64,000 bases of DNA from Escherichia phage PinkRuby: the sequence record PP925839.1; one strand, given 5' to 3'. The translations under genes and the position numbers were made by a program. The notes beneath the pieces are model-generated. The model did no database searches and had not been told where the DNA came from. It saw only the letters and a program-made list of their open reading frames with translations. Shown piece by piece: positions 36,082 through 36,802 of this stretch. The stretch's first letter is position 1. Each line of letters opens with the position of its first letter.

Positions 36082-36175
36082 TTAAAATCCTTGAAATAAT
36101 TTATCGGTTGGTTATTAATTATTTATTACTTTGTTATTATCCGTAACAGCATTCTCTATGTGATTCAAACTAAAA

Positions 36176-36199
36176 AGCCCCAACCTTTCGGCTGGGGCT
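36176..36199 (-). terminator. Intrinsic terminator (copy 1 of a 34-bp direct repeat)
   Basis: AGCCCCAGCC-GAAA-GGUUGGGGCU hairpin followed by UUUUUAGU on minus-strand RNA. Confidence 0.65.
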
Positions 36200-36206
36200 A
36201 AGAATG

Positions 36207-36680
36207 TTATTTGATTTGTTTAGCAGACCAAATGCGGTCTTTAATAATCTTTTGGATGTCTTCAACATACTCTAGGTCATGAGCATGTGGATTATCTTTG
36301 AAACTATGAGCTCGCGCAAGTTTCTGGCCTTCGGTCTTAATTATCAAAAGTTCTTTAAGAATTGCTTCATACCTAGAGATAATTCCTTTAGCAATATTTT
36401 TTTCTTGTGCTGCTTTAGGGTCAGCCTTAGGAGCAGGTTTACCTGAAGCCTTTGCAAAAGCAGCTCCAGTAGCAACTAAACTTTTCCAAGCCATACTAAC
36501 TGCATTCCCTGTAAATCCTTCGGCTTTCATATCACGAGCAAATTGGAATCGTGATTCATCGGAAGCATCTTTATAGGAATATTTACCCGCGGCAATGGCA
36601 GCTTTTGCGACAGCTTGAATTTCGGTGCTAGATGCTTCATTTAACACCGCTTCATTTAAAAATTGAGCATATGATTTCAT
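36207..36680 (-). CDS. Internal-protein-like head protein with capsid targeting sequence
   Basis: 157 aa; N-terminus MKSYAQFLNEAV; SD AGGAAA; flanked by identical terminators. Confidence 0.65.
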   Translation of the reverse strand: MKSYAQFLNEAVLNEASSTEIQAVAKAAIAAGKYSYKDASDESRFQFARDMKAEGFTGNAVSMAWKSLVATGAAFAKASGKPAPKADPKAAQEKNIAKGIISRYEAILKELLIIKTEGQKLARAHSFKDNPHAHDLEYVEDIQKIIKDRIWSAKQIK

Positions 36681-36730
36681 CTTATTTCCTGTTTTAATTC
36701 GTGGTTTTAATATACTTATTTATACTAAAA

Positions 36731-36754
36731 AGCCCCAACCTTTCGGCTGGGGCT
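36731..36754 (-). terminator. Intrinsic terminator (copy 2 of the 34-bp direct repeat)
   Basis: Same hairpin followed by UUUUUAGUAUA. Confidence 0.65.
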
Positions 36755-36802
36755 AAGCCTCGCGGCAACCTTGTCGGGGTTCCACCTGCTAAGGCAAGTG
36801 TT

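Follow-up and report, generated by a model that had tools for sequence, protein, structure and literature searches.

A duplicated 34-bp terminator hairpin bounds an internal-protein-like gene module between e.8 and rnaC in a Tequatrovirus and probably serves as linker homology for recombination

In T-even phages the polymorphic internal-protein genes are reportedly flanked by conserved blocks, as described by Repoila et al. in 1994 (EMBO J 13:4181). Passages of the later papers on PeSL elements (Arbiol et al. 2010, PMC2839356; Comeau et al. 2014, PMC4122927) credit that work with the idea of shuffling at internal-protein loci, and internal proteins are described in the citing literature as "encoded in two distinct loci". 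At PeSLs, conserved terminator stem-loops flank small non-essential ORFs, and the indels or replacements which separate close relatives end in the element. These elements have been proposed to recombine and to excise or insert self-contained modules, which inverse PCR shows for phage RB49 (PMC2839356, PMC4122927), and their definition includes a strong sigma-70-like early promoter beside the stem-loop, which reads TTTACW-N17-TAYWAT in the T4/PST group. Recombination at short homologies is also on record for T4: under laboratory selection, deletions of 0.7–6 kb (including loss of ipIII) and amplifications arose between short direct repeats, at random microhomologies of 2–10 bp (Srikant et al. 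2022, PMC9391042), and a passage of PMC2839356 cites Singer 1982 for recombination at less than 50 bp of homology. Finally, the GenBank record of phage RB32 contains a 474-nt gene, ORF133c, with the note "flanked by 34 bp imperfect direct repeat".

The locus described here lies in a 64-kb window (the whole stretch of DNA which was analysed) from a Tequatrovirus; the region shows 97.6% identity with Shigella phage KRT47, and approximately 750 phage records match it. All local genes are on the minus strand. In order of transcription, 57B, an ipI-like gene and homologs of T4 trna.4, trna.3 and trna.2 are followed by eleven tRNAs (38455-37435), a 116-aa ORF (37416-37066) and the homologs of rnaD and rnaC. 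After rnaC come copy B of a 34-bp repeat with an adjoining TATAAATA box, gene B, copy A of the repeat, gene A, a hairpin of another sequence (H0) and then the early promoter and homolog of e.8, which are conserved and bound the variable locus on its downstream side (Table 1). In T4 the tRNA transcription unit was reportedly mapped by experiment to end at the hairpin after rnaC (Broida and Abelson 1985). It is the counterpart of copy B, with the difference that in T4 it is present as a single copy and the e.8 promoter region follows directly.

Table 1 Positions of the features of the e.8–rnaC locus in the window.
Feature	Position	Strand	Description
e.8 homolog	35014-35277	minus	256/264 bases identical to T4 e.8
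e.8 early promoter	~35322-35350	minus	promoter-like TTTACA-N17-TACTAT; the SA21RB annotation has a T4-type early promoter here
Hairpin H0	35485-35515	minus	different terminator after gene A, CCCUAUC-UAAAU-GAUAGGG + U5; stem-loop at 35491-35509
Gene A	35518-36081	minus	187 aa; second internal-protein-like gene, immediately downstream of copy A
Repeat copy A	36169-36202	minus	predicted terminator hairpin identical to copy B; begins 5 nt past the gene B stop codon
Gene B	36207-36680	minus	157 aa, MKSYAQFLNEA...; homologous to RB32ORF133c
TATAAATA box	36717-36724	minus	T4 late-promoter consensus; 1-nt overlap with copy B
Repeat copy B	36724-36757	minus	predicted terminator hairpin ~50 nt downstream of the rnaC homolog (exact match, fold, scan)
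rnaC homolog (species 1 RNA)	36805-36943	minus	137/139 bases identical to the T4 rnaC annotation
rnaD homolog (species 2 RNA)	36950-37066	minus	110/116 bases identical to T4 rnaD

The sequence ACTAAAAAGCCCCAACCTTTCGGCTGGGGCTAAG is present as an exact 34-mer in both copies, which are spaced 555 bp apart. No third copy was found in the window when up to 3 mismatches were allowed, and 100 shuffled sequences gave 0 matches to the 34-mer. On the low-coordinate side only, similarity between the copies runs for 6 nt more (40 nt, 38/40 identical), and on the high-coordinate side it ends sharply. The minus-strand RNA of each copy reads AGCCCCAGCC-GAAA-GGUUGGGGCU and then UUUUUAGU, forming a stem of 10 bp (7 G-C pairs, one G.U) with a GAAA tetraloop and a U5 tract. 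The exact repeat pair, the minus-strand ORF which it brackets and the GNRA-loop hairpin with a U-tract on the minus-strand RNA were all found as a first-pass annotation of the window had described them. The isolated hairpin folds at approximately -20.6 kcal/mol as minus-strand RNA versus -15.9 as plus-strand RNA, where there is an A.C mismatch. In context, copy B folds at -25.2 kcal/mol and the hairpin z values were -5.5 and -3.7.

Both copies have the features expected of an intrinsic terminator, namely a G+C-rich stem-loop, a U run directly 3′ of the stem and, on the sense strand, a position just after the 3′ end of a gene or stable RNA, and a consensus terminator scan calls both terminator-like. 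Independent annotators have called both homologous sites terminators; at the site of copy A, a rho-independent terminator is annotated in phages G50 and SA21RB. By these features each 34-bp copy is a minus-strand intrinsic (rho-independent) terminator, which presumably ends transcription of the unit before it. Rfam, run in E-value mode on 34-41 kb, returned tRNAs only, with no match to the hairpin or to the rnaC and rnaD homologs.

Variation of the stem among Tequatrovirus phages follows the same strand. As minus-strand RNA the variants (plus-strand GCT, GTC, GTT and ATC) are always fully paired, at -17.7 to -20.6 kcal/mol, with A-U/G.U swaps preserving the pairing; on the opposite strand the swaps are mismatches (-10.7 to -16.0), GTT excepted. 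Pairing that is kept in the minus-strand RNA and is weaker on the other strand points to the transcript as the target of selection, as a terminator would predict. One instance of compensatory change on both sides of the stem was seen, and a covariation test of the stem on its 8 distinct variants did not reach significance (54/500 shuffles).

The start codon of gene B follows 37 nt after the TATAAATA box. In the SA21RB annotation the same box is marked as a late promoter, and it likewise directly follows the rnaC terminator at three further loci (L011, L017 and L037). It should be noted that the motif by itself is not enriched in the window, with 14 found versus 10.6 expected. At the other end of the locus, H0 resembles the 34-bp repeat in nothing but the ..CCAAAAAGCCC segment and its flank towards e.8, and the left junction of the A cassette contains only ~11-19 bp of shared sequence.

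The products of both genes begin with an internal-protein-type N-terminal capsid-targeting sequence of the MKTYxEFIxE type, approximately 10 residues long: MKSYAQFLNE|A for gene B and MKTYAEFLTE|AAK for gene A. Each leader ends in an L/I-x-E motif, which is the rule for cleavage by the prohead protease (gp21) in T4 head maturation: L-N-E in B, where it occurs again in VLNE, and L-T-E in A. The genes at the ipII/ipIII position of the window begin MKTYQEFITE and MKTYKEFIAE, and T4 IPI begins MKTFKEF...; in total the window has five genes with an internal-protein leader (for background on this leader see PMC3012670), at three loci. The product of gene B is therefore probably, to judge from its leader, a packaged and injected internal protein.

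Compared with the described systems, this locus is like a PeSL in that terminator stem-loops flank variable small ORFs, with a polymorphism of four states (below) whose junctions fall in the hairpins. It differs in that the repeated unit is the 34-bp terminator alone, in its longer stem with a GNRA loop, and in that copy B is also the predicted terminator of the tRNA/rnaC/rnaD unit. After copy B there was no sigma-70-like match, only TATAAATA, and after copy A only ATCACA-N17-GATAAT (9/12); sigma-70-like matches in the region were at background level (11 versus 8.6 expected). As the definition requires an adjacent sigma-70-like early promoter, the element would work like a PeSL and is not one; it is a terminator-only relative. 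The locus also resembles those of Repoila et al. in that genes with only an N-terminal leader in common are exchanged between conserved flanks. It is separate from the ipI-like and ipII/ipIII-like loci, in contrast to the "two distinct loci" named in the citing literature. RB32 carries the same gene at the same position, with copies which differ (GCT vs GTC) where those of the window are identical; as RB32 lacks gene A, its left copy is next to the e.8 flank. Compared with the T4 microhomologies of Srikant et al., the repeat here is a 34-bp functional element which recurs in natural isolates.

Among approximately 730 relatives we found four states of the e.8-rnaC locus: empty, A only, B only, and A+B. 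With H for the 34-bp hairpin, the order is e8 / H0 / A / H / B / H / rnaC in the window, KRT47 and G50; ...A / H / rnaC in Shfl2; e8 / H / B / H / rnaC in RB32, Aplg8, teqskov, L040 and MLF4; and e8 / H / rnaC in T4 and N2. Cassette A is present or absent independently of cassette B. Shfl2 reads GATTCAAACT, then the hairpin, then AAGCCTTGCGG, so that exactly the 555-bp unit is absent and one hairpin is kept; this A-only junction was found in Shfl2 and 10 other phages (13 records listed). T4, T2 and RB7 have one hairpin and neither internal-protein-like gene, and in T4 it lies at record positions 70830-70857, after the trailer of rnaC and ahead of the e.8 promoter region, with copy B and its rnaC-side flank aligning to 70830-70900. 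In every fetched locus the flanks switch inside the hairpin or its AAAAAGCCC/U-tract segment. In a different T4-like group the same rnaC terminator is the insertion site of an unrelated module, which encodes a 184-aa membrane protein (L011 versus L010 and L023) and again has its junction at AAAAAAGCCC. The empty-site hairpins are of two types, ACC..GTC in T4 and ACT..GCT in N2, which would fit derivation from different parents or events.

Since 114-nt junction queries were confounded (pieces up to 557 bp apart were joined, so that the 555-bp cassette was merged), gene A, gene B and rnaC/D were counted separately, and the class sizes are approximate. With GenBank and RefSeq duplicates included, the INPHARED census found the rnaC/D region in 727 records, gene A in 164, gene B in 404 and A and B contiguous in 127, and there were at least 13 records with a single-piece A-only junction. 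An evenly spaced sample of 60 ranked relatives comprised ~11 full, 2 A-only, 21 B-only and 6 empty loci, the remainder being more distant relatives. Between the same hairpins, four loci (L017, L034, L035 and L042) carry diverged B alleles of 153-154 aa, which fit allele swapping.

The first-pass annotation had proposed that the repeats make a cassette which recombination could excise, duplicate or swap. The alignment to related genomes bears this out in that the cassette is present in some and absent from others, with a single repeat at the empty junction (Shfl2 type; T4, T2, RB7). The four-state polymorphism and the hairpin junctions support the idea for loss, gain and allele swapping. Duplication did not hold, as no tandem duplication was found: gene B was at 404 places in 404 records and gene A at 164 in 164.

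A perfect match between the copies is unusual for this repeat: in most relatives, A and B differ at 2-3 positions. The plus-strand CT/TC dinucleotide of the stem is polymorphic at both copies, and all four combinations were seen: GCT,GCT in the window; GCT,GTC in KRT47, RB32 and teqskov; GTC,GTC in G50, L018 and L024; and GTC,GCT in L040. SA21RB has GTT at both copies, a variant which occurred in no other fetched locus. For a two-base change found at both sites, transfer is a simpler explanation than parallel mutation, which points to the polymorphisms common to both copies having come from exchange between them. A search for the exact GCT 34-mer (up to approximately one mismatch) found 83 places in 82 records, and the only other record with two GCT-type copies was vB_Eco_NR1 (1/82), which makes the 34/34 identity of the window an exception. 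Positions 36747-8 of the window differ from all five close relatives compared, and the identity is consistent with a recent conversion of copy B.

The window is itself a mosaic. It is 100% identical to KRT47 across e.8, gene A, its leader and hairpin A, and over 36308-36726 its closer match is Aplg8, a B-only phage (99-100%, versus 91-95% for KRT47). The switch between KRT47-like and Aplg8-like sequence falls within 36250-36307, in the 3′ part of gene B, and this is the only mappable recombination breakpoint in the window. We had expected a breakpoint in hairpin A; it mapped 50-100 bp inside gene B instead. Since this breakpoint is inside the gene and outside the hairpin, homologous exchange of the ordinary kind, in conserved stretches of genes or flanks, clearly moves these alleles as well and also reshuffles the locus.

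We consider it probable that the duplicated terminator bounds a self-contained module and also serves as linker homology for phage recombination. Copy B would be the resident terminator, single copy in T4, which closes the tRNA-rnaD-rnaC unit, and copy A would close the next unit, a gene for a probable injected internal protein driven by the late promoter and presumably expressed late. The 555-bp module would then consist of promoter, ribosome-binding site, gene and terminator. As every module ends in the same hairpin, the hairpins may act as short patches of homology, or linkers, at which the very active recombination system of the phage would make crossovers, either within a genome or between co-infecting relatives. 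From the positions of the junctions we infer that recombination occurs at the 34-bp repeat. A crossover between copies A and B would delete gene B and leave one hairpin. If instead the hairpin of an A-only phage crossed over with that on the e.8 side in a B-only phage, the products would be one A+B phage and one empty phage. A circular molecule of hairpin plus gene could integrate likewise. Gene conversion would swap sequence between the copies, the window being a recent case.

The main alternative, conceivable if rather unlikely, is that the hairpins only mark boundaries passively, functional constraint and common descent having kept the two terminators similar. Each state would have arisen once by an illegitimate event and spread by recombination in the long flanks (e.8, rnaC/rnaD) or inside the genes, and the junctions would lie at hairpins only because each gene unit needs a terminator at its end. 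The mapped breakpoint within gene B agrees with this, as do the flanks, where relatives are 95-100% identical over far more sequence than the 34 bp of the repeat, and the lack of any duplication of A or B in the 164 and 404 records. An 18-nt core of the hairpin was moreover found in IMG/VR mostly in unrelated phages with a similar generic terminator (loci L008-L041), with only ~12 T4-like loci in that scan. However, passive boundaries leave unexplained the same dinucleotide polymorphism at both copies, including the GTT found at both within the SA21RB genome alone, as well as the two empty-site hairpin types and the unrelated cassette of the other T4-like group at the same junction. Many stems, H0 for example, terminate equally well, so that constraint alone would not hold the copies at 34/34 identity.

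We regard as quite improbable that the repeat was left behind when an internal-protein gene was duplicated in tandem with its terminator, the coding parts having since diverged under diversifying selection and the terminators having remained alike. A and B do have a common 11-residue targeting leader and belong to the same family, phrog_2280 (listed in PHROGs as of unknown function), and arrays of internal-protein genes also occur at the ipII/ipIII locus of the window. However, the similarity between A and B is undetectable by BLASTP past those first 11 residues, the repeat pair brackets B with its upstream copy following rnaC and gene A ending in H0, and in T4 the hairpin is present without any internal-protein gene there. 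Such a duplication could account for the origin of the module and not for the four-state polymorphism.

A dedicated mobility system acting at the hairpin (attC-like site, homing-endonuclease target or site-specific recombinase) is scarcely credible: the tandem units of ORF plus hairpin superficially resemble integron cassettes, the tRNA region of T4 is a common place for homing endonucleases (segB in T4, RB32 and N2) and a passage of Arbiol et al. (PMC2839356) speculates on a protein binding GGGG...CCCC stems, but no obvious integrase or recombinase was seen by eye among the 33-40 kb ORFs, the cassette is an internal-protein-like gene alone, the stem variants keep their pairing (by G.U) only as minus-strand RNA and not as DNA, a U-tract follows the stem, and the window has the cassette without segB. 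The attC-like and homing-endonuclease readings were rejected on the RNA-only pairing, the U-tract and the lack of segB, and an integron attC also because five ORFs compared with Pfam or PHROGs included no integrase; a transposon target-site duplication was rejected for the excessive length of 34 bp and for want of a transposase.

The idea of a swappable cassette between such repeats is not new, as the RB32 record's note and the literature on PeSLs and internal-protein loci already contain it. The locus is best filed as a further example of the cassettes bounded by regulatory elements in T4-type phages, apparently a clean natural one in which small accessory genes are traded as self-contained units with neighbouring transcription undisturbed. 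Since both the repeat and the principle are on record, current understanding does not change. What remains new is a locus distinct from the ipI-like and ipII/ipIII-like loci, a linker which is a terminator shared with the tRNA/rnaC/rnaD unit, and two uncharacterised candidates for injected anti-defence proteins in A and B. All four combinations of the two cassettes occur in isolates and the junctions are known to a few bases, and recombination at the 34-bp element can therefore easily be tested.

The traded cargo probably consists of injected counter-defence proteins. Ip1-3 have recently been shown to inhibit particular GmrSD-type restriction enzymes (PMC12373910). More tentatively, e.8-rnaC may be a third T-even internal-protein locus, at which the tRNA/rnaC/rnaD terminator docks modules of terminator plus late promoter as a late-promoter counterpart of PeSLs, and A and B may be injected anti-defence proteins such as inhibitors of GmrSD-type enzymes. 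Both genes are candidates for anti-restriction screens. Gene B had no informative match in Pfam, NCBIfam, a PDB sequence search or Foldseek (PDB, BFVD). Its homologs come from T4-like phages only, and its predicted structure is all-helical (pLDDT 73.7).

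Comparison with related phages showed that the window is mosaic, with switches at 36250-36307 and at about 36853-36987. To the left of the first switch it matches the relative KRT47, most of gene B (the internal-protein-like gene bracketed by the 34-bp hairpin repeat) and its leader match Aplg8, and in rnaD the window again matches RB32, KRT47 and G50. The protein family of gene B looks modular from its alignment (A4): the N-terminal region is conserved from about residue 15 to about residue 80, and there is a Lys/Pro/Ala-rich linker, KPAPKADPKAAQEK. In P0010, P0011 and P0013, homologs from Yersinia and Klebsiella phages, unrelated sequence takes the place of the C-terminal region.

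We found the 18-nt core of the repeated hairpin, AAAAGCCCCAACCTTTCG, in unrelated phage contigs as well (L008, L009, L012-L016 and other IMG/VR contigs), where its context differs from the T4-like locus and is conserved among these contigs themselves. The hairpin sequence is therefore a recurrent generic terminator which is not specific to T4-like phages. A resemblance to the repeat was observed in the 3' trailer of rnaC, where CAACCTTGTCGGGG (36766-36779) resembles one arm and the loop (CAACCTTTCGGCTGGGG). This element is conserved in T4 and could be a degenerate partial copy of the repeat or an alternative pairing partner.

At the rnaC terminator of one T4-like IMG/VR contig (L011, positions 2913-3566) we observed an inserted gene for a predicted membrane protein of 184 aa, which brings a hairpin of its own as well as a TATAAATA box. 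The gene is absent in two close relatives, the T4-like IMG/VR contigs L010 and L023, and the junction of the insertion lies at AAAAAAGCCC.

Additional features of the window to the right of rnaC
Feature	Position	Strand	Annotation
116-aa ORF	37066-37416	minus	phrog_3355, unknown function; between the rnaD homolog and tRNA-Arg
tRNA cluster, 11 genes	37435-38455		Gln, Leu, Gly, Pro, Ser, Thr, Met, Tyr, Asn, His, Arg
ipI-like internal-protein gene, 85 aa (MKTFKEFATK...)	39481-39738	minus	phrog_3499 'internal head protein'

Whereas rnaD and tRNA-Arg are adjacent in T4, the window carries the 116-aa ORF between them. This ORF was also found in KRT47, G50, Shfl2 and Aplg8, is missing from T4 and RB32, and has no room in SA21RB; it is another indel in the region of the gene A and gene B cassettes. 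The tRNA cluster also differs from that of T4, which has 8 tRNA genes, Ile among them, and the homing-endonuclease gene segB, located inside the T4 cluster, is absent from that of the window.

A 69-nt direct repeat of 84% identity (39428-39496 and 39758-39826) flanks the ipI-like gene, and further, weaker copies lie at 7415 and 35311. Read on the minus strand, the repeat holds GTTTACA...TACTAT, which is like a T4 early promoter, together with an inverted repeat, an arrangement which resembles the promoter-early stem-loop (PeSL) cassette of T4-type phages.

In Escherichia phage vB_Eco_F26 (L043), where gene B is shortened to 111 aa, we observed a 350-bp tandem duplication (positions 386 and 736) covering the e.8 promoter region, H0 (the different terminator following gene A) and the end of gene A. 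The duplication could be either real and short-repeat-mediated or an assembly artefact.
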